Source: Nitrospira sp.
Lineage (GTDB): Bacteria > UBA10199 > SBBF01
DNA length: 29,838 bases
Reading direction: 5' to 3'
NCBI GenBank assembly: GCA_005240075.1
Contig: SBBF01000080.1
Coordinates: 1-29,838, forward strand
The notes beneath the pieces were generated by a model. It ran no database searches. It had not been told where the DNA came from and saw only the letters and a program-made list of their open reading frames with translations. The stretch's first letter is position 1. Each line of letters opens with the position of its first letter. The translations under genes were made by a program, and so were the position numbers. Of the stretch, positions 1,727 to 28,961 are shown one piece after another.

Positions 1727-1825
1727 AAATCCCCTTCCCTTTTTAACCAGATTTTGTAATGTCCCCCCGCAAATGCAAATTTACAGGGTTATCCAATCAT
1801 GAACAAAACAAGAAAGCCCTTGAGC

Positions 1826-1905
1826 GAAGGATCTGGCTTGGCCAGTTCTGAGTTTGGAGGCTCCCTTCATGGGCCGCCGGAGGCGGACCGGAAGGTACAT
1901 AATGG
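1826..1905 (+). repeat. Composite hairpin element, copy H, in the opposite orientation to copies B to F: GAAGGATCTGGCTTGGCCAG...CCCTTCATGG-[GCCGCCGGAGGCGGAC]-CGGAAGGTACATAATG
   Basis: It contains the covarying hairpin CTGGC-TTG-GCCAG (1833-1845) and the CCTTCATGG...CGGAAGG module. It ends with GGAAGGTACATA-ATG (ATG at 1902), 16 nt before the 1918 start. Confidence 0.75.
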
Positions 1906-2513: not shown

Positions 2514-3539
2514 AAACACGTGGGCCGCGGTGACCATCACGTAAACAGTTTTCCCTTTGGTAAATCCGCTTAAACCGGCAACTCCGGTAGGAATATGGGC
2601 GATGACATGTTGACCCGGCTCCATCTCGATATCCAACAGTTCGGTCGCTCCCAGATATTGAAGGGAACGAATGGTTCCCGGCCATCCCCCCCGCTCTTTA
2701 TAGGAGGTTACATAAACATCATTGGGTCTGAACAGAACAGTCGCCTGAGTCCCCTCCTGCAGATGAACCGCTTTAAAGCGAAAATGCCCCCAGGCTACCT
2801 CTCCCGCAGTCACAACGCCATCAATGCGATTGGTCTCCCCGACAAAAGCGGCCACAAATTCGGTGGCCGGGAAATTAAAAATATCCTGCGGGGGGGCGTT
2901 CTGCTCAATTCTGCCTTTGTTAACGACGAGAATGCGGTCCGATACTTCAAACGCTTCATCCTGATCGTGGGTGACCAGAAGAGTGGTTAATTGGACGCGA
3001 TGATGGAGTTCCTTAAGCCAGCTTCGTAATTCTTTTCTCAAGCGGGTGTCCAGCGCCCCGAAAGGTTCATCCAGCAAAAGAAGCTCCGGCTCTGGCGCCA
3101 GTGCCCGCGCCAGTGCCACCCTCTGCCGCTGACCACCGGAGAGTTGGGAGGGCATTCTTTTGTCCAACCCTTCAAGGCCTACCAGACCCAGAAGTTTTCG
3201 AGCCCGATCCAGCCTTTCACCAGTTTTGACTCCCCGGACTTTCAATCCAAAAGCAATGTTATCAATAACCGACAAATGGCGAAAAAGGGCAAAGTGCTGG
3301 AAGACAAAACCGACTTTTCTATTCTGAACCGGCACTTCAGTTACATCTTCTCCCTTCACCTCAATCCGGCCGGCAGTCGGTGTTTCCAGACCGGCAATGC
3401 AACGAAGCACCGTCGATTTTCCGGAACCGGATGGCCCCAGCAGAGTGACAAACTCCCCTTTTTCGACCAGAAAAGAAATGTTATCGACGGCGGTGAATCC
3501 GTTGAATGATTTGACCAGATTTTCTACTCGGATAGACAT
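2502..3539 (-). CDS. cysA: Sulfate/thiosulfate ABC transporter ATP-binding protein with a C-terminal TOBE domain
   Basis: Walker A GPSGSGKST, signature LSGGQRQRVALARAL and Walker B LLLDEP. The C-terminal roughly 110 aa form a MOP/TOBE-like domain. It is the last gene of a cysT-cysW-cysA arrangement. Confidence 0.9.
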   Translation of the reverse strand: MSIRVENLVKSFNGFTAVDNISFLVEKGEFVTLLGPSGSGKSTVLRCIAGLETPTAGRIEVKGEDVTEVPVQNRKVGFVFQHFALFRHLSVIDNIAFGLKVRGVKTGERLDRARKLLGLVGLEGLDKRMPSQLSGGQRQRVALARALAPEPELLLLDEPFGALDTRLRKELRSWLKELHHRVQLTTLLVTHDQDEAFEVSDRILVVNKGRIEQNAPPQDIFNFPATEFVAAFVGETNRIDGVVTAGEVAWGHFRFKAVHLQEGTQATVLFRPNDVYVTSYKERGGWPGTIRSLQYLGATELLDIEMEPGQHVIAHIPTGVAGLSGFTKGKTVYVMVTAAHVFEKK

Positions 3540-3542
3540 TTA

Positions 3543-3668
3543 TATACCTTCCCGCTTCGCGATGAAGGAAGCCCCCAATCTCAGAACTGGCTACTTGTAC
3601 TTCGCAAAGCCGATGGCTTTGCTACGCGGCCAAGCCAAGCTTGGCCTTGTAGCCAGATTCTTCGTCAT
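3543..3668 (+). repeat. Composite hairpin element, copy B, expanded with nested hairpins, occupying the whole cysW-cysA intergenic spacer
   Basis: ATACCTTCCCGCTTCGCGATGAAGGAAGC...CTGGCTAC[GCAAAGCC-ATC-GGCTTTGC][GGCCAAGC-CAA-GCTTGGCC]GTAGCCAGATTCTTC. Read on the minus strand it ends GGAAGGTATATAA-ATG, the cysA start. Confidence 0.8.
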
Positions 3669-3682
3669 ATGGCATCCGTGTA

Positions 3683-4573
3683 TTATTTCGAATGTGTTTT
3701 CCATTCAACTAGTGCCTTTAATACAAGAGTTGCCAGCGCCAGCAACCCCAATAACGAAGCGACAGAAAACGCGCCGATAAAATTATATTCGTTGTAAAGA
3801 ATTTCAACCTGCAACGGCATGGTGGTTGTCAATCCCTGAATATGCCCTGAAACAACGGATACCGCGCCAAACTCCCCCATCGCTCTGGCATTGAGGAGAA
3901 TAACCCCATAAAGCATTCCCCAGCGAATGTTGGGAAGAGTCACCAAAAAAAAAGTTTGCCAACCGCTGGCTCCCAACGTCAACGAGGCTTCTTCCTCCTC
4001 GTTCCCCTGAGCCTGCATGAGAGGGATTAATTCACGCGCTACAAAGGGGAAAGTGACAAAAACGGTCGTGATCACAATCCCCGGAACGGCAAAGATAATT
4101 TTGATGTCGTGCGCGTTCAAAAAAGAACCCAAAAGACCCTGAGATCCAAACAAGAGCACAAAGACCAACCCCGAGACGACGGGGGAAACGCTAAACGGCA
4201 AATCAATGAGGGAAATCAAAAATCGTTTTCCAAAAAATTCGAATTTGGCAATCGCCCAGGCGGCTGAAATCCCAAAAATCACGTTCAAGGGAATTGAAAT
4301 AGCCGCGACGGTCAGAGTCAAGCGGATGGCCGACAGATTTTCAGGCGTGAACAACGATTGAATATATCTGACAAAACCCTCGTTAAAGGCACCCGCAAAA
4401 ACAGTTAGAAGGGGGAGAATCAGCACAAAGAAAACAATTCCCAACGCCAGAAAAGTCAAAATAAGGCGGATTTCTTTCCTTTCCGAAACGACGGATGGAT
4501 AAAGCGAAGTTGGAAAAATATTAAAGTTTTTCCGGATCATGATTCCTTTTCTCTCCCCATCCCTGAAGCCCAT
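3683..4573 (-). CDS. cysW: Sulfate ABC transporter permease CysW
   Basis: A multi-TM ABC permease with an EAA-like loop, sitting between cysT and cysA. The likely true start is the internal Met at 4540 (MIRKNF...). Confidence 0.85.
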   Translation of the reverse strand: MGFRDGERKGIMIRKNFNIFPTSLYPSVVSERKEIRLILTFLALGIVFFVLILPLLTVFAGAFNEGFVRYIQSLFTPENLSAIRLTLTVAAISIPLNVIFGISAAWAIAKFEFFGKRFLISLIDLPFSVSPVVSGLVFVLLFGSQGLLGSFLNAHDIKIIFAVPGIVITTVFVTFPFVARELIPLMQAQGNEEEEASLTLGASGWQTFFLVTLPNIRWGMLYGVILLNARAMGEFGAVSVVSGHIQGLTTTMPLQVEILYNEYNFIGAFSVASLLGLLALATLVLKALVEWKTHSK

Positions 4574-5366: not shown

Positions 5367-5387
5367 GAAATAAGAAAATATCCTCCG

Positions 5388-5474
5388 CGGAGAGAGTGGG
5401 ATTCGAACCCACGGTACCGGTGAAGGTACACACGCTTTCCAAGCGTGCGCCTTAAGCCGCTCGGCCATCTCTCC
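5388..5474 (-). tRNA. tRNA-Ser (anticodon GGA), type II with a long variable arm
   Basis: Manual fold: acceptor GGAGAGA/TCTCTCC, anticodon stem CACGC/GCGTG with loop TTGGAAA, a 17-nt variable arm, T-arm GTGGG-TTCGAAT-CCCAC. TATAAT lies about 17 nt upstream. Confidence 0.85.
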
Positions 5475-6320: not shown

Positions 6321-6375
6321 TCAGATGGTCCCAAACCCCGTGTTCAGGACTGGCAAAGCCAGATCCTTCACTTAC
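6321..6375 (+). repeat. Partial family element, copy G (module 2 only): ...GTTCAGGACTGGCAAAGCCAGATCCTTCACTTAC
   Basis: Exact 13-mer CTGGCAAAGCCAG at 6350-6362, with flanks matching copy A (AAACCCC..GTTC.GGACTGGCAAAGCCAGATCCTCACTCAC). Confidence 0.75.
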
Positions 6376-6518
6376 TTAATATGCAAAGATGATGCCAAAT
6401 TAGTCGAAATTATATATCTATAAACTATTGAAATTATTAATCTAATTTTAATAAAAAAACAACTACGGGGAATGAATCCCCCATCTTATGCTTATTTTGA
6501 GGCATGAAGACAACATCC

Positions 6519-6597
6519 GATACCTTCCCGCTCGCTTTGCTCGCGATGAAGGAAGCCTCCCATCTCAGAACGGGCCAAGCCCGATTCTTCTCTCGTG
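6519..6597 (+). repeat. Composite hairpin element, copy C
   Basis: GATACCTTCCCGCTCGCTTTGCTCGCGATGAAGGAAGCCTCCCATCTCAGAACGGGCCAAGCCCGATTCTTC. The module-2 hairpin is CGGGC-CAA-GCCCG, a compensatory variant of CTGGC-AAA-GCCAG. Confidence 0.8.
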
Positions 6598-6663
6598 GGC
6601 GGTCGTGTTCTGACTGCTGGCAAGATTATCTTGCCAAAATAAATTAAGTGGATAAGTTGCCTG

Positions 6664-6761
6664 TCAGCCGGGCCCCGTGCAAAGGTATAAATACTCAATC
6701 CCGCCAGATCCGGAAGGAAGCAACGGTAGGTTTTTTTCCTTGTGCCGCGGTCAGCCCGGTG
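6664..6761 (+). ncRNA. ffs: Candidate small SRP RNA (4.5S-type ffs) immediately upstream of dnaX
   Basis: AGAUCCGGAAGGAAGCAACGG at 6707-6726 matches the conserved SRP domain-IV motif GGUCCGGAAGGAAGCAGCC (GGAA tetraloop with an asymmetric AGCA internal loop). The 5' CCGGGC pairs with the 3' GCCCGG, and GUGCAAAGG pairs with CCUUGUGC. The ffs-dnaX-ybaB-recR synteny is known, for example in Bacillus. The ends are approximate. Confidence 0.5.
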
Positions 6762-6768
6762 ATTATTT

Positions 6769-6850
6769 GTATACCTTCCCGCTCACTGCGTTCGCGATGA
6801 AGGAGGCTTCCGGGCTCAAAACTGGCAAAGCCAGATTTTTCGTTCGGTAG
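6769..6850 (+). repeat. Composite hairpin element, copy D, ending 9 nt before the dnaX start
   Basis: TATACCTTCCCGCTCACTGCGTTCGCGATGAAGGAGGCTTCCGGGCTCAAAACTGGCAAAGCCAGATTTTTCGTTCGG, with the exact 13-mer at 6822-6834. Confidence 0.8.
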
Positions 6851-6858
6851 CGACAACT

Positions 6859-8423: not shown

Positions 8424-8451
8424 CCTTGCATCTGGCTTTGCCAGTGCAAGG
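8424..8451 (+). terminator. Nested hairpin just after the dnaX stop: CCTTGCA-[CTGGCTTTGCCAG]-TGCAAGG, with no U-tract
   Basis: A perfect 7-bp outer stem encloses the family 13-mer in inverse form (CTGGC-TTT-GCCAG, 8432-8444). It is followed by a CAGGGC...GCCCTG hairpin at about 8484-8512. Confidence 0.5.
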
Positions 8452-8537
8452 CGCGGGGGCATGGGGGGTATCAGCAGGGCAAATTGAAATCAAATGAGCC
8501 CTGCGGGCCCCCCATTGTAAATAACCAAGGAGATCAA

Positions 8538-8849
8538 ATGAAGATGAATGATATCATGAAGCAGGCCCAGCAATTGCAAAAAAAATTCCAAAAACAGCAG
8601 GAAGAGCTGGCTTCCAAAGAATTTGAGGCCTCTTCCGGCGGAGGGATGGTGACTGTAAAAGTCAACGGGCGAGGCGAAGTGTTGTCGGTGGTCATGGATC
8701 CCGAAGTGGTCAACAAGGACGACCTGGAAATGCTGCAGGACCTGGTGGTGGCCGCCATCAACGAAGCGCTCAAAAGAATGCAGGAGGCCCAGCAGGATGA
8801 AATGGCCGACATGATGGGGGGGTTGGGGCTTAAACTTCCTGGAATTTAA
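8538..8849 (+). CDS. ybaB: Nucleoid-associated protein YbaB/EbfC
   Basis: MKMNDIMKQAQQLQKKFQKQQEEL...GGGMVTVKVNGRGEV is a typical YbaB sequence. AGGAG lies 7 nt upstream of the ATG at 8538. The track ORF extends upstream to 8484. Confidence 0.85.
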   Translation: MKMNDIMKQAQQLQKKFQKQQEELASKEFEASSGGGMVTVKVNGRGEVLSVVMDPEVVNKDDLEMLQDLVVAAINEALKRMQEAQQDEMADMMGGLGLKLPGI

Positions 8850-8920
8850 AATTCAAAGTTCAAAATTAAAAATTAAGGTACCATAGTTTTAAATTTTTCA
8901 TTTTAAATTTTAAGTTTTTT

Positions 8921-9508
8921 ATGACCCCTTTTGATCGGCTTACCCACGAATTATCGAAACTTCCCGGCATTGGTCAAAAATCAGCCCTCCGGTTGGCTCT
9001 CTTTATTTTGAGGCAGGGACCGGAGTATTCTCAAGCATTGTCCGATTCCCTGCTTGAATTAATCGCTAAAGTCACCTTTTGTTCGCACTGTTTTCATTTT
9101 ACGGATCGGGATCCTTGCGCTACCTGTTCTGATCCCACGCGCGATTCGCGCATGATTTGTGTGGTGGAAGATTCGGCTGATCTGATGGCTTTGGAAAGAA
9201 CCCATATTTACCGCGGCCGGTACCATGTGCTTCAGGGGGCTTTGTCTCCGTTGGACGGAATGGGGCCCGATCAGATCCGTTGCCATGAATTGATCGAACG
9301 AATCAAAAAAGAGGAGATTCGGGAAATTATATTGGCCACCAACCCCAATGTAACGGGAGATGCCACCGCCCTCTACCTTTCCAAATTACTCAAACCCATC
9401 GTACCGAAAATCACCCGCCTCTCCAGCGGCATTCCGGTTGGAGGACAAATTAATTACATCGACCCGATGACCTTATCCAAAGCGCTGGAAACCAGACGCG
9501 AATATTGA
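8921..9508 (+). CDS. recR: Recombination protein RecR
   Basis: Helix-hairpin-helix N-terminus (LPGIGQKSALRLA), a C4 zinc finger (CSHCFHFTDRDPCATC) and a Toprim domain. It sits in the canonical dnaX-ybaB-recR order. Confidence 0.9.
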   Translation: MTPFDRLTHELSKLPGIGQKSALRLALFILRQGPEYSQALSDSLLELIAKVTFCSHCFHFTDRDPCATCSDPTRDSRMICVVEDSADLMALERTHIYRGRYHVLQGALSPLDGMGPDQIRCHELIERIKKEEIREIILATNPNVTGDATALYLSKLLKPIVPKITRLSSGIPVGGQINYIDPMTLSKALETRREY

Positions 9509-9575
9509 ATAAAAAGGCCGAACAAAAATCTTGCCAACCTGTTGCCATTATATTACACTTGTAATAATTTGTATT

Positions 9576-10076
9576 ATGGACGTGATATTTGATGCATCAT
9601 CTCTTATTCTTTTGGCTAAGATCAGTCTATTGCGGCTCGTACTTGAAAATAACAGGAGTTTTATGACGGGGGCGGTGCAGAAGGAAATCGGCAAAAAAGA
9701 TTCTGACGACTCAAGATTAATGAGAGAAATGACAAGGGAGGGGCTTATTGAATTGTGCGATGAGCCGTCGGCAGGAGTCATCGATAAATTCATGAAGGAC
9801 TTTCGATTGGGAAAGGGGGAGGCGTCCACTCTCATAGCAGCGCAAAAAATGAAATCGCTGATTGCAACCGATGATGGTTTGGCCATTAAGACCGCTAAAC
9901 TGTTCAACATCCCTTTTTTAACAGCAATTCATTTTCTGGTCCGGCTGAGAACGCAAAAAGCGATCGACATGGAAGAGTCGGTAATGAAGCTTAAGCTTTT
10001 AGCACACTATGGAAGGTATCAGGCTTTTATTATTCACGATGCCGAAAAGCGTCTGAAAGGGGAGGGAGGAAACTGA
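9576..10076 (+). CDS. PIN-like nuclease of the DUF3368 family (putative toxin)
   Basis: MDVIFDASSLILLAKISLL...GKGEASTLIAAQKMKSLIATDDGLAIKTAKLFNIPFLTAIHFL matches the DUF3368 pattern (v.sDTtpLi.L..i..ldLL ... gEaeaialA.e...d.lllDDr.aR..A...gl.v.gT). The track ORF starts at 9531. The Met at 9576 is the likely start. Confidence 0.65.
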   Translation: MDVIFDASSLILLAKISLLRLVLENNRSFMTGAVQKEIGKKDSDDSRLMREMTREGLIELCDEPSAGVIDKFMKDFRLGKGEASTLIAAQKMKSLIATDDGLAIKTAKLFNIPFLTAIHFLVRLRTQKAIDMEESVMKLKLLAHYGRYQAFIIHDAEKRLKGEGGN

Positions 10077-10079
10077 ATC

Positions 10080-10364
10080 ATGAAAACAATGAGCATCCGG
10101 GTTAGTGATTCGGAATTAAAGCAAATCAGCAAATTGGCCAAAACAACCGGTTTGGACAAATCGGCCGCCGCTCGCGAGCTTTTAAGGGACGGCTGGTTTT
10201 TTTATTGGATACGCCAATACCGGGAAAAGAAGGTTTCACTGGAAAATTTGTCCTCCAATCTCAATCTTTCGCTTTCCGAGACGATTGATCTGCTCTCCGA
10301 GTTGGGTATTGAGGCCCCTATCAGCTACGATGATTATGTTTCCGGTTTTAAATTTTTTGGGTAG
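10080..10364 (+). CDS. Putative antitoxin: RHH-like N-terminus fused to a UPF0175-like C-terminus
   Basis: The N-terminus MSIRVSDSELKQISKLAKTTGLDKSAAARELL is ribbon-helix-helix-like. The C-terminus YREKKVSLENLSSNLNLSLSETIDLLSELGIEAPISYDD matches UPF0175 (yreGkiSlgkaAelagms..ef.dlL.erGIp..yd.ed). It starts 3 nt after the PIN gene. Confidence 0.55.
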   Translation: MKTMSIRVSDSELKQISKLAKTTGLDKSAAARELLRDGWFFYWIRQYREKKVSLENLSSNLNLSLSETIDLLSELGIEAPISYDDYVSGFKFFG

Positions 10365-10412
10365 TAGAAAAAGGATTGGGTATCGCAATACCCTCGGGCT
10401 TGAGTTGAAATA

Positions 10413-11231
10413 TTAAAGGATAAACTGCCGGAAAACTTGTTCATAATTGAGAATCCACTGCTGTTCGGAGGGGTCTTCCAAAAAACGCCCCACATCCTTA
10501 AGGATGTCGGAGGCTCCTGCTTTTTTGACTTGTTGCTCAACAGCTTTCATGACTTGAGGCACATCCTTAAATTTTTTCCCCTTTGTGCCCCGGTTTAAAT
10601 AACTCAAGTTCAGTTCCGTTTTCCGGCTTAAATACCAGATGAGGTCATAATAGTCTCGACCGCGAGAATACGGTCGATGAAGCAGTGCCAAAATTTTTCC
10701 CGCGAACAGGGTGGGGAGGTTGTGTTTTAAGATCGGAAAAATCTCCTGAAAACGGTTGACGAAAAAACTTTCCCGCTCTCCTTTTTTGAGCGGAAGGGGA
10801 TTTACGTCCACTTCCAGTTTTACATGGAGTTTTTGATCCTCCTGGAAGCCCCTGAGGTCAAAGGCCCGTCCAAGGCCGGCAAAACGCAAGAAACCTTTTT
10901 GGACGATTTTGTTTTCCTGAAACGAGGAATCAATGTCAAAACCTCGCAGCTTAAGTTCGCGAGCCAACACATCCATCAGGTTGGCGAACCGGTAAGACTC
11001 TTTTTTGCCGTCCCGGCAGAAATCAAGGTCTTCGGAATAACGCTTGATGCCATGGCAGATGCGCAGGGCCGTTCCCCCCATAAACGACAGGCTCCCCCCA
11101 AAGGGGGACTGAAATACCATCTTGAGCACCAGCGTCTGGAGGTACTCGCGAAGGACATTGAGGACATCCTGATCCGTTGTCGGCAGGTTTCGCCTTCGAA
11201 GTTCTTCAATTATTTTTCTGGCTCTTTCCAT
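10413..11231 (-). CDS. abiEii: AbiEii/AbiGii-family nucleotidyltransferase toxin (type IV TA / abortive infection)
   Basis: Hallmark motif GGTALRICHGIKRYSEDLDF (PF08843-like GGTAL...R.SeDlDf) plus a DUF1814-like C-terminus. It overlaps the upstream abiEi by 26 nt. Confidence 0.75.
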   Translation of the reverse strand: MERARKIIEELRRRNLPTTDQDVLNVLREYLQTLVLKMVFQSPFGGSLSFMGGTALRICHGIKRYSEDLDFCRDGKKESYRFANLMDVLARELKLRGFDIDSSFQENKIVQKGFLRFAGLGRAFDLRGFQEDQKLHVKLEVDVNPLPLKKGERESFFVNRFQEIFPILKHNLPTLFAGKILALLHRPYSRGRDYYDLIWYLSRKTELNLSYLNRGTKGKKFKDVPQVMKAVEQQVKKAGASDILKDVGRFLEDPSEQQWILNYEQVFRQFIL

Positions 11232-11820
11232 AATTTGTTCGGTAATCCAAAAAGGAAGTTAAAAGTCGCCCCACCTTTTCAGGGTATTGCCGGGCATAGA
11301 CTTTAAGTTTCTTCACGTCAAGATCCCCGACATTTTGAAAGCGTTCTTCTCTCCAAAAAAGAGGAGTCGCTTTCAAGTGATGGCGATGGAAGTAGAAATA
11401 ATCCAGAAGAGCCTTCTCCTTTTCGGCCATGAGCGTTTGCGGGTCAAAGCCCCAAAAAAGTTTCTGATGAATCTTGTGATAAAAAAATTCCCCATAGGGG
11501 GTCTGGAACTTCCGGGTAAGTCGGGGGGTGACCAGAGTCATGGAAAAAGGGACATCGGGAATGAACCCATGGGCATGAAGGGCATATTCCAGACTGATAT
11601 AGGAGGGGCCGTACAAGATTTTTGCCACCTCCACTTTGTCCCTGATCCGATCCGGAAAACCATACACCCCTCTTTTGAAGCGGAGCAGCTCCCCCTGCCG
11701 ACACCAGTGGTGAAGCTGGACCTTCAACTGATTCGGGGAGGTTTCCCATCCCACCCGATGGGCCTCCTCCAAGGTAAAACAGGGTTTTTGCATTTTTTTG
11801 ACGAATTCATTAAGTTTCAT
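11206..11820 (-). CDS. abiEi: AbiEi-family antitoxin/transcriptional regulator (N-terminal wHTH)
   Basis: A 204-aa protein with QLHHWCRQGELLRFKRGVYGF, the AbiEi_4 signature l..G.l.ri.rGvY. It lies immediately upstream of, and overlapping, abiEii. Confidence 0.65.
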   Translation of the reverse strand: MKLNEFVKKMQKPCFTLEEAHRVGWETSPNQLKVQLHHWCRQGELLRFKRGVYGFPDRIRDKVEVAKILYGPSYISLEYALHAHGFIPDVPFSMTLVTPRLTRKFQTPYGEFFYHKIHQKLFWGFDPQTLMAEKEKALLDYFYFHRHHLKATPLFWREERFQNVGDLDVKKLKVYARQYPEKVGRLLTSFLDYRTNYGKSQKNN

Positions 11821-13413: not shown

Positions 13414-13887
13414 TCAGACTCTCTGAAGCAGGGAGGATACCGATTCTCCCGTTTGAGGATTGACCCAGTCCGGCGCAATTTCGCGAAGCGGCTCCAAAAC
13501 AAAACGGCGCCTCCCGATTTCGGGATGGGGCAAAATCAAATCATCGGTTTTCAAAATCACTGAGCCGTAAAAAAGAAGATCCAGATCAATCACCCGGGAT
13601 TCCCATTTGACGCGACGGACCCTCCCCATTTTTTGTTCAATGCCCAGCAGTTCCCGGAGCAAAACCTCCGGTTCAAGCGCTGTTTCCACAAGACAAACGG
13701 CATTCACATACCAGTCAACAGATTGAAAGTTTTCTTCATGAGGAGGAAGAAGGGGTTCGTTATGATAAAAAGAGGAACAGGCTATCAGCCGGCTTTCTGG
13801 GAGATTTGTCAGAGCTTTCAACGCCTTTTGACACTGGAGAAAAGGATGATCCAGGTTGCTTCCTATGGCAATACCTGCTTGCATCAT
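13414..13887 (-). CDS. folK: 2-amino-4-hydroxy-6-hydroxymethyldihydropteridine pyrophosphokinase (HPPK)
   Basis: IAIGSNL...YHNEP...W.SR.IDLDLL......DL.LPHPE...R.FVL.PL.EI.P. The start codon directly abuts repeat copy E. Confidence 0.85.
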   Translation of the reverse strand: MMQAGIAIGSNLDHPFLQCQKALKALTNLPESRLIACSSFYHNEPLLPPHEENFQSVDWYVNAVCLVETALEPEVLLRELLGIEQKMGRVRRVKWESRVIDLDLLFYGSVILKTDDLILPHPEIGRRRFVLEPLREIAPDWVNPQTGESVSSLLQRV

Positions 13888-13967
13888 ATACCTTCCCGCT
13901 CGGGCTTTGCCCTCGCGATGAAGGGGGCCCTCGAGTTCAGGAGTGGCAAAGCCACATCCTTCATCAT
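13887..13967 (+). repeat. Composite hairpin element, copy E, abutting the folK start codon
   Basis: ATATACCTTCCCGCTCGGGCTTTGCCCTCGCGATGAAGGGGGCCCTCGAGTTCAGGAGTGGCAAAGCCACATCCTTCATC. Inner hairpin GGGC-TTT-GCCC. Module-2 hairpin GTGGC-AAA-GCCAC, a compensatory variant. Confidence 0.8.
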
Positions 13968-14150
13968 CTGGCGCTCGAGCATTCCGGCTTCGTTTATCTT
14001 TTTTGGAATGGGAAGATCAAGAGATTTTTAAAAAACCTGAACATCCCACAAACCGAAGTGATTGCAAAATAAGGGATTTGACGGTAAGAAAACTTGTCTG
14101 AAAGCAGAGTCAAACACGAACCCCCTCGACCGAAGAATCAGGCTTTGCAT

Positions 14151-14234
14151 TGATATACCTTCCCGTCAGCTTTTGGCTGACGATGAAGGGGGCCTCCGAG
14201 ATCAGAACTGGGAGACCCAGATTCTTCTTCCGGG
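14151..14234 (+). repeat. Composite hairpin element, copy F
   Basis: TGATATACCTTCCCGTCAGCTTTTGGCTGACGATGAAGGGGGCCTCCGAGATCAGAACTGGGAGACCCAGATTCTTCTTCC. Inner hairpin CGTCAGC-TTTT-GGCTGACG. Module-2 hairpin CTGGG-AGA-CCCAG, a compensatory variant. Confidence 0.8.
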
Positions 14235-14254
14235 GGCAGTCGAGTATAATGGAT

Positions 14255-14365
14255 GTGAGTGAGGATCTGGCTTTGCCAGTTATGAGTGAGGATCGAATTT
14301 ACTTCGTCCGAGCGAATACCAAGGGGGTTTATCCAGCACTCAAAAGCTTTTGAGTGCTGGATGAA
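14255..14365 (-). repeat. Inverted copy (A') of the composite element seen at 98-180: CTGGCTTTGCCAG hairpin (14267-14279) plus the perfect 32-nt palindrome ATCCAGCACTCAAAAGCTTTTGAGTGCTGGAT (14331-14362)
   Basis: The reverse complement aligns with 98-180 (CATCCAGCACT.AAAAGCTTTTGAGTGCTGGATAAACCCCC...CTGGCAAAGCCAGATCCTCACTCA) with one internal indel. It is followed by GATGAAGGGGGC and a GGGGGC...GCCCCC hairpin before the tRNA. Confidence 0.8.
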
Positions 14366-14397: not shown

Positions 14398-14487
14398 GGA
14401 GAGGTGGCCGAGTGGTCGAAGGCGCCTGACTCGAAATCAGGTATACCTTTACCGGTATCGTGGGTTCGACTCCCACCCTCTCCGCCA
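14398..14487 (+). tRNA. tRNA-Ser (anticodon CGA), type II, with encoded CCA
   Basis: Manual fold: acceptor GGAGAGG/CCTCTCC, anticodon stem CCTGA/TCAGG with loop CTCGAAA, long variable arm, T-arm GTGGG-TTCGACT-CCCAC, 3' GCCA. Confidence 0.85.
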
Positions 14488-20066: not shown

Positions 20067-22043
20067 ATGACCGATAAAATAGCTGGATTGAAAGGTTTGA
20101 CGGTGGTTTCGTTCGAAAGCCGGATGAAGCTTCCGATGCAACGGTTAATTGAAAAGTATGGTGGAAAAGCTTTTGTCGCCCCTTCAATGAAAGAAGTGCC
20201 ACTGGCCGAAAATCCAGGAGCGTTTGATTTTTTTGAAAAACTGGAGAGAGATCAGTTTGATCTGGTGATTTTGATGACAGGGGTAGCCACCCGAACGCTG
20301 ATCCAGACTCTAGAAACCCGTTTCCCGAAGGAACGAATACTCGAAGCCCTTTCCACCAAGACAAAAATTGTCGTCCGGGGACCCAAGCCGACAGCGGTCT
20401 GCAAAATGAACCATATTCCGATTGTGGTGACCGCCCCCGAACCGAATACCTGGCGCGAAATTCTGGCCATCCTGAACGAAGAACAATTATTGGCCAATAA
20501 GCGAGTTGCCGTATTGGAATATGGCATATCGAATGTCTCGTTTTTGGAGGAACTGCAATTGGCCGGAGCCCAGGTGACCCCCGTCGCTGTTTATCAATGG
20601 GCCTTGCCTGATGATCTAGGCCCCTTAAATCAGGCTGTTGATTTAATCCTGGCTGGTGAGGCAGATCTGGCGCTGTTTACCACGTCGGTTCAGGTTGATC
20701 ATCTCCTAAAAATAACGCGCGAGAGGAAAAAAGAATTGGCCTTGCGTCGGGCTTTTCACAAAATCGGTGTTTGTTCTATCGGTCCCACCACAAGCGAAAA
20801 ACTGCGCGACCACCAAATTTTTCCTGATCTGGAGGCGAGCCCTAATAAAATGGATGCACTCGTGGAACAGGTCTCAGAAAAAGGAAAAGAGATTGTAGAG
20901 CAAAAAAGAGCGCGCTCAGAGAAGAGCTGGATATGGAAGGATTATCCGAAATTACGTAGGGGCGATCCTTGTGATCGCCCATTTGATCGGGCGAAGACAA
21001 GCTTCGCCCCTACGGATTCTCCCCTGATGCGCGCCTGCCGGCGCCAACCAAACAAGACGATTCCCATTTGGCTGATGCGCCAGGCGGGCCGTTATATGGC
21101 GGAGTATCATATTTCGCGACGGGGTTTGGGCTTTTTGGAATTTTGCAAGCGACCCGAGCTCACTGCCGAAGCCACCATCACAGCTGTTGAGCGATTAGGG
21201 GTGGATGCCGCCATCATTTTTGCCGATATTCTGCTGATTGTTGAACCAATGGGACTTAATCTCACTTATCTGGAAGGGGAAGGACCGGTGATTGCCACTC
21301 CAATTCGTGATGAAGAGAGTGTCGGCAAACTTAAACCGGTCGAGGTACAGGAGTCTCTCTGTTATGTTCTGGAAGCGGTCAAGACCGTTCGGCAATCGAT
21401 GCGCCCCGATATTCCTCTGATCGGTTTTTGCGGCGCCCCTTTTACCGTCGCTTCCTACATGATTGAGGGGAGAGGGACGGTGTCCCAAGGCTCCAAAAAT
21501 TTTATTCCGACAAAGATCCTGATGCACCAGCATCCGCAAACCTGGCATGAATTGATGGAAAAAATTACAATCGCTTCGATCGATTATTTGAACGCCCAAA
21601 TTGAAGCGGGAGCCGATGTAGTGCAGATCTTTGACAGCTGGGTGGGGGTTTTGAGCCCGCAAGAATACGAGGAGTATGTTCTTCCTCATTCCAAAAGACT
21701 CATTGATGGAATCAAAAAAGGGGTTCCCGTTATTCATTTTGGAACACAGACCGCTTCTCTTCTTTCCCTGATGAAAAAAGCAGGGGGGGATGTGATCGGG
21801 ATTGATTCAAGGACCGACATCCAAAAAGCGTGGGATCAACTGGGAGAGGTTGCCATTCAGGGAAATCTTGATCCGGTGATTCTTTTTTCAAAGCCTGAGA
21901 TTATTTGCAGGGAGGCCGAAAAAATACTCAAAGCTGTCGGGCACAAACCGGGATTTATTTTCAATCTGGGGCATGGCATTCTGCCGGAAACCCCTGTCGA
22001 CAACGTCATGGCGCTGGTTGATTTTGTCCATGAGGCAAAGTAA
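20067..22043 (+). CDS. hemD-hemE: Apparent fusion protein: uroporphyrinogen-III synthase (HemD, N-terminal, about 1-290) plus uroporphyrinogen decarboxylase (HemE, C-terminal, about 313-658)
   Basis: The HemD-like N-half has two alpha/beta subdomains. The HemE half carries RQPNKTIPIWLMRQAGRYM...PELTAEATI...DAAIIFADIL......GFCGAPFT.ASYM......NLGHGI. There is no in-frame stop across the junction. The linker is encoded by the palindromic doublet 20956-21013. An internal ATG at 21025 could start a separate hemE. Confidence 0.75.
   Translation: MTDKIAGLKGLTVVSFESRMKLPMQRLIEKYGGKAFVAPSMKEVPLAENPGAFDFFEKLERDQFDLVILMTGVATRTLIQTLETRFPKERILEALSTKTKIVVRGPKPTAVCKMNHIPIVVTAPEPNTWREILAILNEEQLLANKRVAVLEYGISNVSFLEELQLAGAQVTPVAVYQWALPDDLGPLNQAVDLILAGEADLALFTTSVQVDHLLKITRERKKELALRRAFHKIGVCSIGPTTSEKLRDHQIFPDLEASPNKMDALVEQVSEKGKEIVEQKRARSEKSWIWKDYPKLRRGDPCDRPFDRAKTSFAPTDSPLMRACRRQPNKTIPIWLMRQAGRYMAEYHISRRGLGFLEFCKRPELTAEATITAVERLGVDAAIIFADILLIVEPMGLNLTYLEGEGPVIATPIRDEESVGKLKPVEVQESLCYVLEAVKTVRQSMRPDIPLIGFCGAPFTVASYMIEGRGTVSQGSKNFIPTKILMHQHPQTWHELMEKITIASIDYLNAQIEAGADVVQIFDSWVGVLSPQEYEEYVLPHSKRLIDGIKKGVPVIHFGTQTASLLSLMKKAGGDVIGIDSRTDIQKAWDQLGEVAIQGNLDPVILFSKPEIICREAEKILKAVGHKPGFIFNLGHGILPETPVDNVMALVDFVHEAK
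20956..21013. repeat. REPIN-like inverted doublet of 25-nt GTAG-initiated hairpin units, lying inside the hemD-hemE ORF
   Basis: Unit 1 is GTAGGGGCGATCCTTGTGATCGCCC (20956-20980). Unit 2 on the opposite strand is GTAGGGGCGAAGCTTGTCTTCGCCC (21013-20989). The spacer is 8 nt. Each unit folds as a GGGCGA/TCGCCC hairpin. GTAG 5' termini are the hallmark of REP elements. Confidence 0.6.
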
Positions 22044-23389: not shown

Positions 23390-23899
23390 ATGATCATGGG
23401 GTTGGGACAGTCACAAAAATCAGGTCAGTCAGATCGAACCCAATTTGGAGGATCTTTTGGTACGGGAGGAGGGCTGGATACTCTTTTCAGTTCACTGGAT
23501 GCATCGGTGGCCGAAAATCTGGTGATTCTGATTTCCGGTGAGTTTGGGCGTCAGCTGAGCGCGAATGGGGATGGGGGGACAGATCATGGAAGAGGAAACA
23601 GTATGTTGGTGATTGGAGATCCTGTTGTCGGTGGTCTTTACGGCGATCTTTTTCCTGAAAGTGAGCTAGCCCGTTTTGATGAACCGAGTAGTGATATTGA
23701 AGGGCTGACCTCCATGGAACATGTTTTTGGGGCTGTTTGGGGCTGTTTGGGGCTGTTTGTGACTGGATGCAAGCCGGGGCTGGCAGTGTCGTGTTTCCCA
23801 ACCGGTCGGGTGCTGATTTGGAGGAAGGGGTCAGTCTGGAAGGATTGTTGGTTTAAGATTCCCACTCATTTCTTTTTGCCCGCTTCGTTGATCATTTGA
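23390..23899 (+). pseudogene. Truncated fragment of a DUF1501-family gene (C-terminal about 100 aa only), carrying a tandem 11-nt repeat
   Basis: NLVILISGEFGRQLSANGDGGTDHGRGNSMLVIGDPVVGGLYGDLFPE matches the DUF1501 C-terminal signature (l.v..gEFGRtp.....GRDH......l.aGggv.gG.vyG.td). Full-length members are over 400 aa. TTTGGGGCTGT occurs 3 times in tandem at 23726-23758. The 3' end overlaps hemH by 34 nt. Confidence 0.5.
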
Positions 23900-24891
23900 C
23901 AAACCGCTTCAACCCACAGAGGGTTTTCATTCAGGGAGGGAATCAGTTCCAGATGTTCTCCCCCCCTTTTTAAAAAAGAGTCTCTCCCTCGAATCCCTAT
24001 CTCCTCAAGAGTTTCCAGACAATCAGCCACAAACGAAGGACAAAAAACAGCGAGCCATTTGATCCCTTTTTTTGGAAATTCAGTCAGCAAAATATCCGTA
24101 TAAGGTTTGATCCAGGGGGTTCTCCCCAATCGCGATTGAAAGGAGATGGTAAATTGCTTTTCAGTCAACCCCAGTTCTTTGGCAATCAGTTTGGCGGTTT
24201 GAAAACAGTGGGCCCGATAACAAGCCTGGTTGGCGATCTCCATTTTTTCGCAACAATCCCTCACCTGCAAACACCAGGAGCCTGTCTTGTCCAGTTTGGT
24301 TAAATGTCTTTCAGGAAGACCATGAAAGCTGAACAGAACATGATCCGGATTCATGCGATTGATCACCTCCTTTCCCTGTTCGACCCATGCCCGGATAAAA
24401 GAGGGATGATCATAAAAAGGAGGGATGACTTTCAGCGGGGGAACCAGTTTTATTTTTTCAATCACCCGAAACAGTTCGGTCAAACTTGATTCGGTGCTGG
24501 ATGAGGCATACTGGGGGTAGAGGGGAAAAATTCGCAATTCATCGACTGATTTCGAAAGAATTTTTTTTAACCCCTCTTCAATTGAGGGACTTCCATAACG
24601 CATTCCTATCTCTACCGCATAATTTTCTCCCAATTGACTCGCCACTGTTTTGGCTAAGGCTTCTGTGTGAATAATAAGAGGCGAGCCTTGGTCGCCCCAG
24701 ATTTTCTGATAAGCAGCCGCCGATTTTCGGGGACGGAAGGGGAGAATAAACAGATTCAACAATAACCAGCGGGCCAGCGGATGGATGTCGATCACCAGCG
24801 GATCGGACAAGAATTGCCTTAAGAATTTCCGGACAGCCGGCACGGTGGGAGCTTTCGGACTTCCGAGATTGATTAAAAGAATACCCGTCAT
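23866..24891 (-). CDS. hemH: Ferrochelatase
   Basis: MTGILLINLGSPKAPTVPAVRKFLRQFLSDPLVIDI... is the canonical HemH N-terminus. 341 aa. Confidence 0.9.
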   Translation of the reverse strand: MTGILLINLGSPKAPTVPAVRKFLRQFLSDPLVIDIHPLARWLLLNLFILPFRPRKSAAAYQKIWGDQGSPLIIHTEALAKTVASQLGENYAVEIGMRYGSPSIEEGLKKILSKSVDELRIFPLYPQYASSSTESSLTELFRVIEKIKLVPPLKVIPPFYDHPSFIRAWVEQGKEVINRMNPDHVLFSFHGLPERHLTKLDKTGSWCLQVRDCCEKMEIANQACYRAHCFQTAKLIAKELGLTEKQFTISFQSRLGRTPWIKPYTDILLTEFPKKGIKWLAVFCPSFVADCLETLEEIGIRGRDSFLKRGGEHLELIPSLNENPLWVEAVCQMINEAGKKK

Positions 24892-25916: not shown

Positions 25917-27302
25917 TCAGACCGCCCTCGAAAAGGCCGCTGTTTTTGACCTCTCTTTTATTCCTGCATGATACACATCAAACACCATCGCCATGTTGCG
26001 CAAAAACAAACGCCCCTCATTTTTAACCAAAAATGTGGAAGGGAAAATTTCCAGCAAATCGTCCTCAATAAAAGGAACAAGCCCTCTCTTTTCCTGTTCA
26101 AAATAACTCCAAAAATCAAGCCCCCATTTTTTTTCAAAAGAGGGAATATCCACACAACCGCGGCACATGATCTGGGTGATCAAGTCTCGTCTTACATGAT
26201 CATCTCTTTCGAGTAGAAATCCACGAAAAGTGGCTAACTGTCCGCTTGCAATTTTTTCATTATATTTTTTTAAATCTTTTTGGTTCTGAAAATAATTCCC
26301 GTTCACATACGAAATGGCTGAAACGCCGAAACCGATCTGATGGGCTTCAGCCCGTGTGGAATACCCCATAAAATTTCGGTGAATCGTCCCCTCGTCCAGG
26401 GCATGCGCCAGTTCGTCATCTTCAAGGGCAAAATGATCCAGGCCAATCGATCGATAACCATTTTGAGTCAAAATAGGGTAGGCCGTTTCAAAAAGTTTAA
26501 GCTTGATCTCCGGAGAGGGGAGGTCCGAATCGTTGAAAGTCCTCTGGACCGGGCGGGCCCACGGAACATGAGCATAGCTGTAAACGGCCAGACGATTGGG
26601 CCTCAATTCCAGAATCTGCTCCAACGTTCTGATCCATCCGTCCATCGTTTGGCCCGGAAGGCCATAAACCAAATCAATATTAAAGTGCTGGAATCCCAAA
26701 CCTCGAAGATAAGTGATCATGTCGCGCGTCATTTCATAAGTTTGATGGCGGTTGATCAGTTTTTGAACATGCGGATCAAGATCCTGCACACCCAATGAAA
26801 TACGATTAAACCCGAGCGTCTTTAAATTATCACAAAAGGATTGTGTTGAAGTGCGTGGATGCATCTCAATCGCCATTTCCGCATCGGGCAAAAGAGTAAA
26901 ACGCCGGCTCACCTTTAAAACAATTTCCGTCAATTCTTCCGGTTGAAAAAAGTTAGGGCTGCCCCCTCCAAAATGGAGTTGGGTGACAGGTGGGGCAGGG
27001 CTTGCCCTGCCCTTACACATTTGATTTAATACCAAATCAATTTCTCTCAACAAAATATCCGTATAGTCCCGCGACCGGCTCTGATCTTTGGTGATCACCT
27101 GCATGCATCCACAAAAATGGCAGAGGTTTTCGCAAAAGGGGAGATGGAAATAGAGGGATAATTGTTCCCCCATGTCTTTCAACGCCTTTTCATAATCCCT
27201 TGCTGTCACCTGTTCCGTCCAGGCCAACACCGTCGGATAACTGGTATACCGCGGCGCCGGAATATCGTATTTTTTAAGAAGATCACAAAGAGAGGGGGGC
27301 AT
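25917..27302 (-). CDS. hemN: Oxygen-independent coproporphyrinogen III oxidase (radical SAM)
   Basis: YTSYPTVLAW, radical-SAM CxxxCxxC (CENLCHFC), about 460 aa with a HemN C-terminal domain. Confidence 0.9.
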   Translation of the reverse strand: MPPSLCDLLKKYDIPAPRYTSYPTVLAWTEQVTARDYEKALKDMGEQLSLYFHLPFCENLCHFCGCMQVITKDQSRSRDYTDILLREIDLVLNQMCKGRASPAPPVTQLHFGGGSPNFFQPEELTEIVLKVSRRFTLLPDAEMAIEMHPRTSTQSFCDNLKTLGFNRISLGVQDLDPHVQKLINRHQTYEMTRDMITYLRGLGFQHFNIDLVYGLPGQTMDGWIRTLEQILELRPNRLAVYSYAHVPWARPVQRTFNDSDLPSPEIKLKLFETAYPILTQNGYRSIGLDHFALEDDELAHALDEGTIHRNFMGYSTRAEAHQIGFGVSAISYVNGNYFQNQKDLKKYNEKIASGQLATFRGFLLERDDHVRRDLITQIMCRGCVDIPSFEKKWGLDFWSYFEQEKRGLVPFIEDDLLEIFPSTFLVKNEGRLFLRNMAMVFDVYHAGIKERSKTAAFSRAV

Positions 27303-28658: not shown

Positions 28659-28961
28659 TAGTTATTTTCTCCAGACAAGATTGAAGTCTTGAATGTCATC
28701 GCCGGCTTCAATTCAATTTTTGATCTCTGCCGCGGATGGGGATAGGCGCCGTAGAGCATGATGCCGGGTCGAACCCATCCATGACCGGAAAGATTCCGGT
28801 CAATAATGGCAGACGAATTGGCGAAGGGACAATGTCATTTTTTAAATCAAGCAAAAATTCAATTTCGGATTAATGATAAATATTAAATAAATTCAATAGT
28901 TTAATAATTTTTACAACTAAAATTTAATTATTTTTTATTTTATCAATCATTATTTTTAATT

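Follow-up and report, generated by a model that had tools for sequence, protein, structure and literature searches.

A two-hairpin repeat that fills the cysW-cysA spacer of an uncultured groundwater bacterium is probably a mobile insertion with a 3′ end able to act as an initiation region

The stretch of DNA analysed here (hereafter, the window) is the whole of contig SBBF01000080.1, 29.8 kb (29,838 nucleotides), from an organism whose nearest named relatives are groundwater metagenome-assembled genomes labelled Deltaproteobacteria. On its minus strand lie, in this order, cysT, cysW, a spacer of 143 nt and a gene for a cysA-like ATPase; the spacer, which is occupied by a copy of a structured repeat, is the subject of this report. 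CysT and CysW are recognized by the NCBIfam models TIGR02139 (385 bits) and TIGR02140 (388 bits, against a cutoff of 329), and for the ATPase the sulfate-ATPase subfamily model TIGR00968 gives 340.5 bits, slightly below the cutoff of 342.75; homologues of this ATPase are named sulfate transport ATP-binding protein by JGI. The first, second and third codon positions of cysA are 92, 96 and 61% identical to those of the relative L121 (relatives are designated here by L numbers) and, to judge from these figures, the gene is still under purifying selection. The features of the junction and of the copy that fills it, termed c2, are listed below (SD, Shine-Dalgarno sequence):

3683-3685, minus strand: TAA stop codon of cysW, now about 143 nt from the cysA start; it overlaps or abuts the cysA ATG in relatives
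3540-3682, minus strand: cysW-cysA spacer of 143 nt, made of the inserted copy c2 (covariance-model match at 3541-3679) and a few junction bases; no counterpart at the orthologous junction in L121, L133, L119/L120 or L122-124
3571-3673, minus strand: hairpin 1 of c2, with a long 5′ stem, GCC..GA-GAAGAAU-CUGGC (apex) GCCAG-UUCU-GAG..GGGGGC, as found in minimum free energy folds
3595-3648, minus strand: 54-nt branched expansion of the hairpin 1 apex, specific to c2; two small hairpins that resemble a duplicated apex, from alignment and fold
3547-3568, minus strand: hairpin 2 of c2, CCUUC-A-UCGC-GAA-GCGG-GAAGG, -8.9 kcal/mol at 37 °C; outer arms invariant in the family, inner stem variable and covarying
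3547-3552, minus strand: GGAAGG, 7 nt from the cysA AUG, the only SD-like motif in the 20 nt before cysA; duplex of -7.9 kcal/mol with a canonical anti-SD; predicted to be paired
3537-3546, minus strand: UAUAUAA spacer and cysA AUG; the same end, GGGAAGGTATATAA-ATG, is found in the independent L132 insertion before orn
3539-3537, minus strand: ATG start codon of cysA

No spacer is present at the orthologous cysW-cysA junction in five relatives. The two genes overlap by 17 nt in L121 (CysA 92% identical) and in L133, they share an ATGA overlap in L119/L120 (CysA 83% identical), and in L122-124 (CysA 74% identical) the junction reads TAA-ATG. The element, of about 145 nt, is therefore specific to the lineage of the window and, on the evidence of these junction sequences, the spacer is a recent, lineage-specific insertion into an overlapping stop/start junction.

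The original prediction had described the spacer as a member of a repeat family that brings GGAAGG with it, and both the coordinates and the sequence are as it gave them. The pattern TACCTTCCSG-N5-30-ATGAAGG has 6 matches in the 29.8 kb of the window, against 0.00 expected from shuffled sequence, and R1, a nine-copy covariance model, gives the full window copies, six in number, 70-96 bits. Full copies are repeats of about 90-105 nt, and those of the window are confined to the first 14.3 kb of the contig; the family as analysed here comprises 10 full copies at 9 loci, which include copies found in relatives and in metagenome contigs (see below). The other complete, partial and marginal copies of the window are as follows:

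1810-1901, plus strand: copy c1, 89.8 bits, ending 16 nt before the ATG of a gene for a secreted protein of 176 amino acids (p176)
6517-6606, minus strand: copy c3, in the divergent region between a gene for a protein of 247 amino acids and the signal recognition particle (SRP) RNA, without an adjoining credible gene start
6768-6857, minus strand: copy c4, antisense, beginning 4 nt past the 3′ end of the SRP RNA (6666-6764), upstream of dnaX
13885-13978, minus strand: copy c5, abutting folK as GGAAGG-UAU-AUG-AUG; its hairpin 2, at -19.6 kcal/mol, is the most stable of the set
14152-14243, minus strand: copy c6, apparently inserted into another, broken copy, the 5′ half of which is at 14114-14148 on the plus strand
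6341-6372, minus strand: partial copy consisting of hairpin 1 only, 26 bits
154-173 (minus strand), 8427-8448 (plus strand) and 14262-14287 (plus strand): marginal, apex-only matches of about 15-16.5 bits, E about 0.1-0.2

FolK is recognized by the NCBIfam model TIGR01498 (116 bits). Hairpin 1 of c4, when read on the plus strand, is the terminator-like CTGGCAAAGCCAG-ATTTTTCG; on the SRP strand, it is a compensatory G-C to A-U change that gives CTGGCAAAGCCAG-ATTTTTCG, and c4 may have been co-opted as the terminator of ffs. A second repeat is found at 95-182 and 14254-14365, where a hairpin with a 14-bp stem (ATCCAGCACTnAAAAGCTTTTGAGTGCTGGAT with flanking G/C runs) stands beside a hairpin 1 apex module; its two copies form an inverted pair 14 kb apart, 86% identical over 59 nt with a perfect core of 27 nt, and enclose every full copy of the main element.

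On the strand that reads GGAAGG, the 5′ part of the element is (A)ACACGnnn-GCCnnnnGA-GAAGAAU-CUGGC-(apex)-GCCAG-UUCU-GAG-nnGGnGGC, which forms hairpin 1, and the 3′ part, CCUUC-A-U-(variable inner stem-loop)-G-GAAGG, folds into hairpin 2 and leads to a UAUAU(N)RAU end. Hairpin 1 starts about 10 nt from the 5′ end of the element and hairpin 2 ends about 6-9 nt from its 3′ end. The apex of hairpin 1 carries, in the L127 copy, a different expansion at the same point as in c2. The RNA of the cysW-cysA spacer is predicted to fold at -64.1 kcal/mol (z = -4.3 against shuffles) and the fold is borne out by comparison: canonical pairs fill 87% of the pair cells over the 10 distinct copies, a share that drops to 34-51% if the structure is shifted along the alignment, and double-sided changes occur at 10 pairs, against 4.3 in shuffles, with 0 of 500 shuffles reaching 10. 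The inner stem of hairpin 1 is 100% paired in the 10 copies, with compensatory changes in four of its eight pairs, and hairpin 2 shows covariation in 5 of 13 pairs; its five outer CCUUC/GAAGG pairs are invariant in the 10 copies and hence uninformative about pairing either way. The fold is also strand-biased. On the GGAAGG strand G.U outnumbers A.C by 18:3, and in 8 of the 10 copies the sense strand gives the better fold, its mean advantage over the antisense strand being 3.4 kcal/mol (Wilcoxon p = 0.027). The short hairpin 2 variant of the cysA copy (CGCG-NAG-CGGG) also occurs in L125, where it stands before a tRNA gene, and in L127; because of this the short hairpin is not an adaptation specific to cysA, and the idea that selection had weakened the cysA hairpin was rejected.

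Occupancy by the element differs among close relatives at three loci: cysW|cysA, orn|p176 and arfB-like|orn. The p176 site, which holds c1 in the window, is likewise filled in L121 and is empty in L131 and L132, the p176 proteins of these two falling in the same 90% cluster. Judged by 4-fold degenerate sites, where L121 and L132 are 87% identical and the window only 71-74%, the outgroup is the window and, with L121 filled and L131 and L132 empty, there must therefore have been at least one clean loss or two gains at this site. At arfB-like|orn, the L132 copy (418-507; 85.6 bits) sits exactly between the arfB-like TGA and the orn ATG, where the two genes overlap in L131 (TGATG) and in the window (TAATG). 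The L132 insertion, independent of that at cysA, nevertheless has an identical GGGAAGGTATATAA-ATG end. On the 5′ side of the p176 element site, within 1690-1790, a block TTTGTAATGTC(A)CCCCCGCAAATG is nearly invariant in the window, L121, L131 and L132 amid divergent neighbouring sequence, and may be a promoter or operator for p176.

Further afield, no copies were found in about 100 kb of sequence from more distant relatives (L119, L122-124 and L128-130), and searches with DnaX and DUF255 homologues for additional orthologous sites gave no close syntenic relatives, the DUF255 loci being without the element. A stricter pattern run on metagenome contigs found the family in only three contigs, L125-L127: the L125/L126 copy ends 3 nt before the 5′ end of a same-strand tRNA-Arg gene, and the L127 copy ends 14 nt before the ATG of a 159-amino acid open reading frame (ORF) that has its own AAGGA SD. 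The looser TACCTTCCSG-N5-30-ATGAAGG pattern was unspecific on genome contigs, giving only single chance matches in unrelated taxa. A blastn search of one copy against plasmid and phage collections gave no matches, a pattern scan of viral contigs gave no copies, and Rfam, at gathering and at permissive thresholds, gave no relevant match to the element, the best sub-threshold score over it being 8-16 bits; only the SRP RNA and two tRNAs reach the gathering threshold in the window. The repeat family itself is undescribed, and neither Rfam nor any of the plasmid, phage and viral collections that were searched contains it. Eight of the nine independent loci are oriented towards the nearest downstream gene, and six end no more than 25 nt before a same-strand gene start, five of these genes being protein-coding and one a tRNA gene.

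The 3′ end of the spacer reads GGGAAGG-UAUAUAA-AUG, and the earlier claim that GGAAGG is the sole SD-like sequence before cysA is true for the last 20 nt. A CCUUC able to pair with GGAAGG was said to lie upstream of it in every copy, and it does so, across the variable inner hairpin, in all of them; moreover, GGAAGG is predicted to be paired in every leader folded. In the cysA leader at 37 °C, the first G is predicted to be unpaired with a probability of 0.16, and the remaining five bases with probabilities of 0.01-0.05. The same module had also been placed before other genes, and here the claim stands in part. Downstream ATGs, at 6-7 nt, are all present (1902, cysA, 6516, folK and 14150), but the ATG at 1902 is flanking DNA outside the element, aligned with an AAAGG of the flank in L121 and L132, and neither the 17-codon ORF (ATG at 6516) nor the 40-codon ORF (ATG at 14150) is a credible gene; the latter crosses the broken element copy and is probably spurious. 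That a single repeat carries the translation signals of unrelated genes is accordingly tenable in the case of cysA, of folK and, in a relative, of orn, but not for p176, which has its own GGAG SD 3′ of c1. The ATG itself was considered as a part of the element and rejected: the conserved end is ...GGTATAT(N)RAT, which needs only a following G to make an ATG, and it is because of this UAUAU(N)RAU end and the G after it that an ATG recurs at +6/7.

Whether the organism depends on such sequences bears on how the GGAAGG is read. At the 26 best-supported gene starts of the window the mean anti-SD duplex, calculated on the assumption of a canonical anti-SD, is -2.9 kcal/mol, against -2.8 kcal/mol at random positions. 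Since there is no enrichment at these starts, an SD is not generally needed, which weakens the notion that the element supplies one as a necessity; from its gene starts, the window organism looks like a weak SD user. About 6 of the 26 genes have a duplex of -6 kcal/mol or stronger. Other kinds of signal were sought in the element. No sigma-70-like site is found inside any copy, and an internal promoter in the style of REP2 or Correia elements was rejected on this ground and because the variable length of the hairpin would spoil the -35/-10 spacing; a TATAAT does occur in L125, where a single nucleotide (1 nt) parts it from the 5′ end of the tRNA. A sigma-54 site was rejected from the sequence, in which the GG/GC spacing is wrong, as was an integron attC site, there being no R′/R′′ boxes and the neighbours being housekeeping genes.

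Taken together, we consider it probable that the spacer is a lineage-specific insertion of a new non-autonomous, two-hairpin mobile repeat of about 90-105 nt, without terminal inverted repeats (TIRs), into the translationally coupled overlap of cysW and cysA, and that the 3′ end of the repeat can stand in as an initiation region. The empty junctions, the presence or absence of the element at three loci, the covarying stems, the strand-biased fold, the orientation of eight of the nine loci and the second insertion with GGGAAGGTATATAA-ATG are the grounds for this reading. The hairpins would be needed by the mobilising enzyme or for the element's own maintenance, probably on one strand of DNA or RNA, and insertions at operon junctions would survive only where the downstream cistron remains translatable. 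The 3′ end of the element would suit such survival because it offers the purine-rich GGAAGG and then an A/U-rich tail ending in A/RAT, which rebuilds an AUG or directly precedes one. In the case of cysA, coupling to cysW would have been lost, and initiation would occur de novo at an AUG 7 nt past a GGAAGG that is masked by the -8.9 kcal/mol hairpin, so that cysA translation would probably be uncoupled and damped rather than temperature-switched. The supply of initiation signals would then be an exapted or tolerated by-product and not the reason for the existence of the element.

Several points weigh against this interpretation. No transposase, TIR, consistent target-site duplication (TSD) or conserved target motif was found that would bear out a mechanism of mobility. 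Specifically, the 29.8-kb contig yielded no transposase domain; the 5′ end of the element, (A)ACACG...GCC, and its 3′ end, ...GGAAGGTATAT, are not complementary; and the left flanks of the copies share no conserved tetranucleotide. An AACA flanks the L121 copy and is single in the empty L132 site, and, supposing an ancestral TAATG junction, an AAT duplication would suit cysW|cysA, but the other copies give no consistent duplication. Of the target models AAT, AACA, ATG and TRA^TG without a TSD, none fits every copy. The sense-orientation bias and the invariant CCUUC/GAAGG arms are also compatible with a role at the RNA level, and the basis of the analysis is limited to the 10 full copies and 9 loci. 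Finally, c1 is 87.5% identical between the window and L121 (77 of 88 positions), whereas the local 4-fold sites are 71% identical (P about 1e-4) and those of cysA 55%, and the 11 differences, six of them in paired and five in unpaired positions, break no pair: the six paired ones amount to two double compensations and two switches between G.U and Watson-Crick pairs. In this alignment c1 looks like a sequence under host-level or structural constraint and not like decaying junk. The constraint and the orientation could both stem from a role at the RNA level or, alternatively, from mobilisation of one particular strand together with survivorship.

A first alternative takes the element to be a regulatory RNA module of the host, in which hairpin 2 sequesters GGAAGG and places cysA, folK and orn under common translational control, like a mobile regulon element, with a trans-acting factor, the activity of an RNA helicase or of S1, or temperature as the trigger. 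The pairing of GGAAGG in all predicted leaders and the CCUUC/GAAGG arms, invariant in 10 copies, are consistent with it, as are the sense orientation of eight of the nine loci, the six that end within 25 nt of a gene start, the same GGGAAGGTATATAA-ATG at two independent operon junctions and the conservation of the orthologous c1 copy above the neutral rate with only pair-preserving changes; Neisseria REP2 provides a precedent (PMC3184786). Yet no melting is predicted between 25 and 45 °C, and the folK hairpin, at -19.6 kcal/mol, would amount to a nearly permanent block. The 26 window gene starts show no SD enrichment, copies also stand before a tRNA gene, in front of genes that already have an SD, in antisense orientation behind ffs and at positions without a gene, and the target genes have no common functional theme; moreover, presence varies between close relatives, so any single copy is dispensable. 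We regard this alternative as unlikely. Much the same evidence tells against translational control, which had been proposed at the outset, as the purpose of the element: because of the lack of SD enrichment, the copy at tRNA-Arg, the two copies (p176 and L127) before genes that have their own SD and the antisense copy behind the SRP RNA, the initiation signals do not appear to be a dedicated SD device.

A further reading, which we hold to be doubtful, combines mobility with control: the element would be a mobile translation-initiation cassette that prefers TRA^TG overlaps and leaders, in sense orientation, uncouples cistrons and gives them a shared, hairpin-masked start opened by a trans-acting factor. 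If it were true, one logic of post-transcriptional control would have spread to the housekeeping genes cysA, folK and orn in an uncultured groundwater lineage.

Rather improbable, in our view, is that the hairpins serve in operons as mRNA stabilisers, processing sites or polarity and termination signals, in the manner of repetitive extragenic palindromes (REP) and bacterial interspersed mosaic elements (BIME), the SD-like motif being merely stem sequence. The positions within operons and in 5′ leaders and the very stable folds (z = -4.3) would suit such a role, and at 4 copies, including the one after the SRP RNA, antisense hairpin 1, with AUUCUUC/AUUUUUC after it, is terminator-like; the sense bias and the G.U asymmetry, however, point to the strand that lacks the U-tract, and the features that define REP (a single palindrome of 20-40 nt and a conserved GTAG) are not present. 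The likeness to REP/BIME suggested in the original prediction is apt in kind, as regards repeats within operons, but does not extend to these two features.

To examine temperature, the leaders of cysA, folK, p176 and the 40-codon ORF were folded at 25, 37 and 45 °C. Five of the six GGAAGG bases have a predicted probability of being unpaired of no more than about 0.06, apart from one value of 0.19, at 25 °C in the cysA leader, and the 5′-most G is more open (0.06-0.29). Hairpin 2 ranges from -8.9 kcal/mol (cysA) to -19.6 kcal/mol (folK) at 37 °C and is predicted to be still folded at 60 °C. These models thus predict masking of GGAAGG but not thermometer-like behaviour, for which, in thermometers of the ROSE and fourU types, the SD is held in a weak, imperfect stem that melts within the physiological range of temperature. 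An RNA thermometer acting on cysA and folK, the remaining proposal of the earlier reading, is very hard to sustain: an anti-SD-like arm is paired to an SD-like motif and the cysA hairpin is moderately weak at -8.9 kcal/mol, but accessibility is predicted to be flat from 25 to 45 °C, other copies reach -11 to -20 kcal/mol, the FourU model scores 14.7 bits, on the wrong strand, against a gathering score of 60 (no Rfam family matches the element), the genes are neither heat-shock nor virulence genes, and the short hairpin variant is also found ahead of a tRNA and of a gene that has an SD of its own.

The closest match for one repeat that carries the translation signals of unrelated genes is Neisseria REP2. 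REP2 (CREN), and likewise the IR elements of Borrelia plasmids, are intergenic repeats of about 100-150 bp, without TIRs and with two internal stem-loops, which lie directly 5′ of unrelated ORFs and contribute their ribosome-binding region; in addition, REP2 brings with it a promoter and an ATG and is linked with a set of co-regulated genes (PMC3184786). The window element resembles REP2 in having no TIR, two stem-loops and an RBS-like GGAAGG (RBS, ribosome-binding site), with six of the nine loci within 25 nt of a same-strand start. Unlike REP2, it has no promoter-like site, its ATG derives from the flank at every locus where a filled site can be set against an empty one, and some copies are not beside genes; nor is it known to be related to REP2 in sequence.

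REP/BIME and the REPINs mobilised by REP-associated tyrosine transposases (RAYTs) are thought to act on the fate of mRNA and are mobilised as single-stranded hairpins; the gene for the RAYT, an IS200/IS605-like Y1 transposase, has REPs on either side. The window element is like them in being structured and extragenic and in lying both within operons and between genes, and, as do REP/BIME, enterobacterial repetitive intergenic consensus (ERIC) sequences and Correia elements, it rides inside operon transcripts; a REP, however, is a single palindrome of 20-40 nt with a conserved 5′ GTAG/GTGG, whereas the window element has two distinct hairpins in about 90-105 nt and no such tetranucleotide. With miniature inverted-repeat transposable elements (MITEs), palindrome-associated transposable elements (PATEs), Correia elements and ERIC it shares the character of a small non-autonomous repeat, polymorphic for filled and empty sites, that inserts into transcribed intergenic DNA and can donate expression signals. 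MITEs are marked by TIRs and by a TSD of fixed length. In PATEs, which derive from IS200/IS605, a hairpin lies close to either end; they are not known to have a TIR or a TSD, are specific to one strand, excise precisely, and go with a cognate TnpA and a conserved target of 4-5 nt directly 5′ of their left end. The architecture of PATEs is the closest to that of the window element, with its hairpin near each end, absence of a TIR, strand-specific fold and clean losses; it differs from MITEs and PATEs in that no TIR, consistent TSD or left-flank target tetranucleotide was found, nor any transposase in the contig. As in leaders that sequester the SD (RNA thermometers, or the 'fold-back inhibition' of IS10/IS50), a CCUUC arm pairs with a purine-rich motif just before the AUG, but here the predicted stability is too high and insensitive to temperature, the motif belongs to a mobile repeat, and no copy is followed by a transposase ORF.

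On present evidence, the element belongs to a known class of structured intergenic repeats, as a genome parasite or a co-opted element, and does not represent a new mechanism. The locus is a clean natural case of a compact operon that survived the hit of a mobile element at a coupled junction, where the element restores a stop, a spacer and an initiation-like site, and this outcome was reached on two independent occasions, once at cysW|cysA and once at arfB-like|orn. Should the masked GGAAGG prove functional, translational coupling and gene dosage in the operons of uncultured bacteria could be rewired by small repeats. The family, with its covarying stems and strand-biased fold, could also be used as a model for finding the enzyme that moves hairpin repeats without TIRs.

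In this lineage one further stop/start overlap has been parted by a small insertion, which is of another kind. The junction of ybaB (8484-8849) and recR (8921-9508) is filled, at 8850-8920, by a different, AT-rich imperfect palindrome of about 75 nt, whereas in L134, a close relative, ybaB and recR share an ATGA overlap; similar AT-rich stretches occur at 26250-26282 and 28905-28937. An island of about 2.4 kb (9531-11820), with an RHH/DUF6290 gene and an AbiEii/AbiEi type IV toxin-antitoxin pair, parts recR from a gene for an Arf/Ras-like GTPase; these two genes are adjacent in L134. In the window cysT is not preceded by a gene for a sulfate-binding protein, in contrast to L119 and L122; between cysT and the gene for the 247-amino acid protein lies, on the coding strand, the tRNA-Ser gene at 5387-5474 (minus strand), which forms an inverted pair, 80% complementary, with that at 14398-14487 (plus strand), the two having GGA and CGA anticodons. 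A third tRNA-Ser called by ARAGORN (24512-24596, plus strand), for which Rfam makes no call, lies inside a ferrochelatase ORF (23866-24891, minus strand) and is probably a false positive. Lastly, a single ORF on the plus strand, at 20067-22043, joins uroporphyrinogen-III synthase (HemD) and uroporphyrinogen decarboxylase (HemE) domains.

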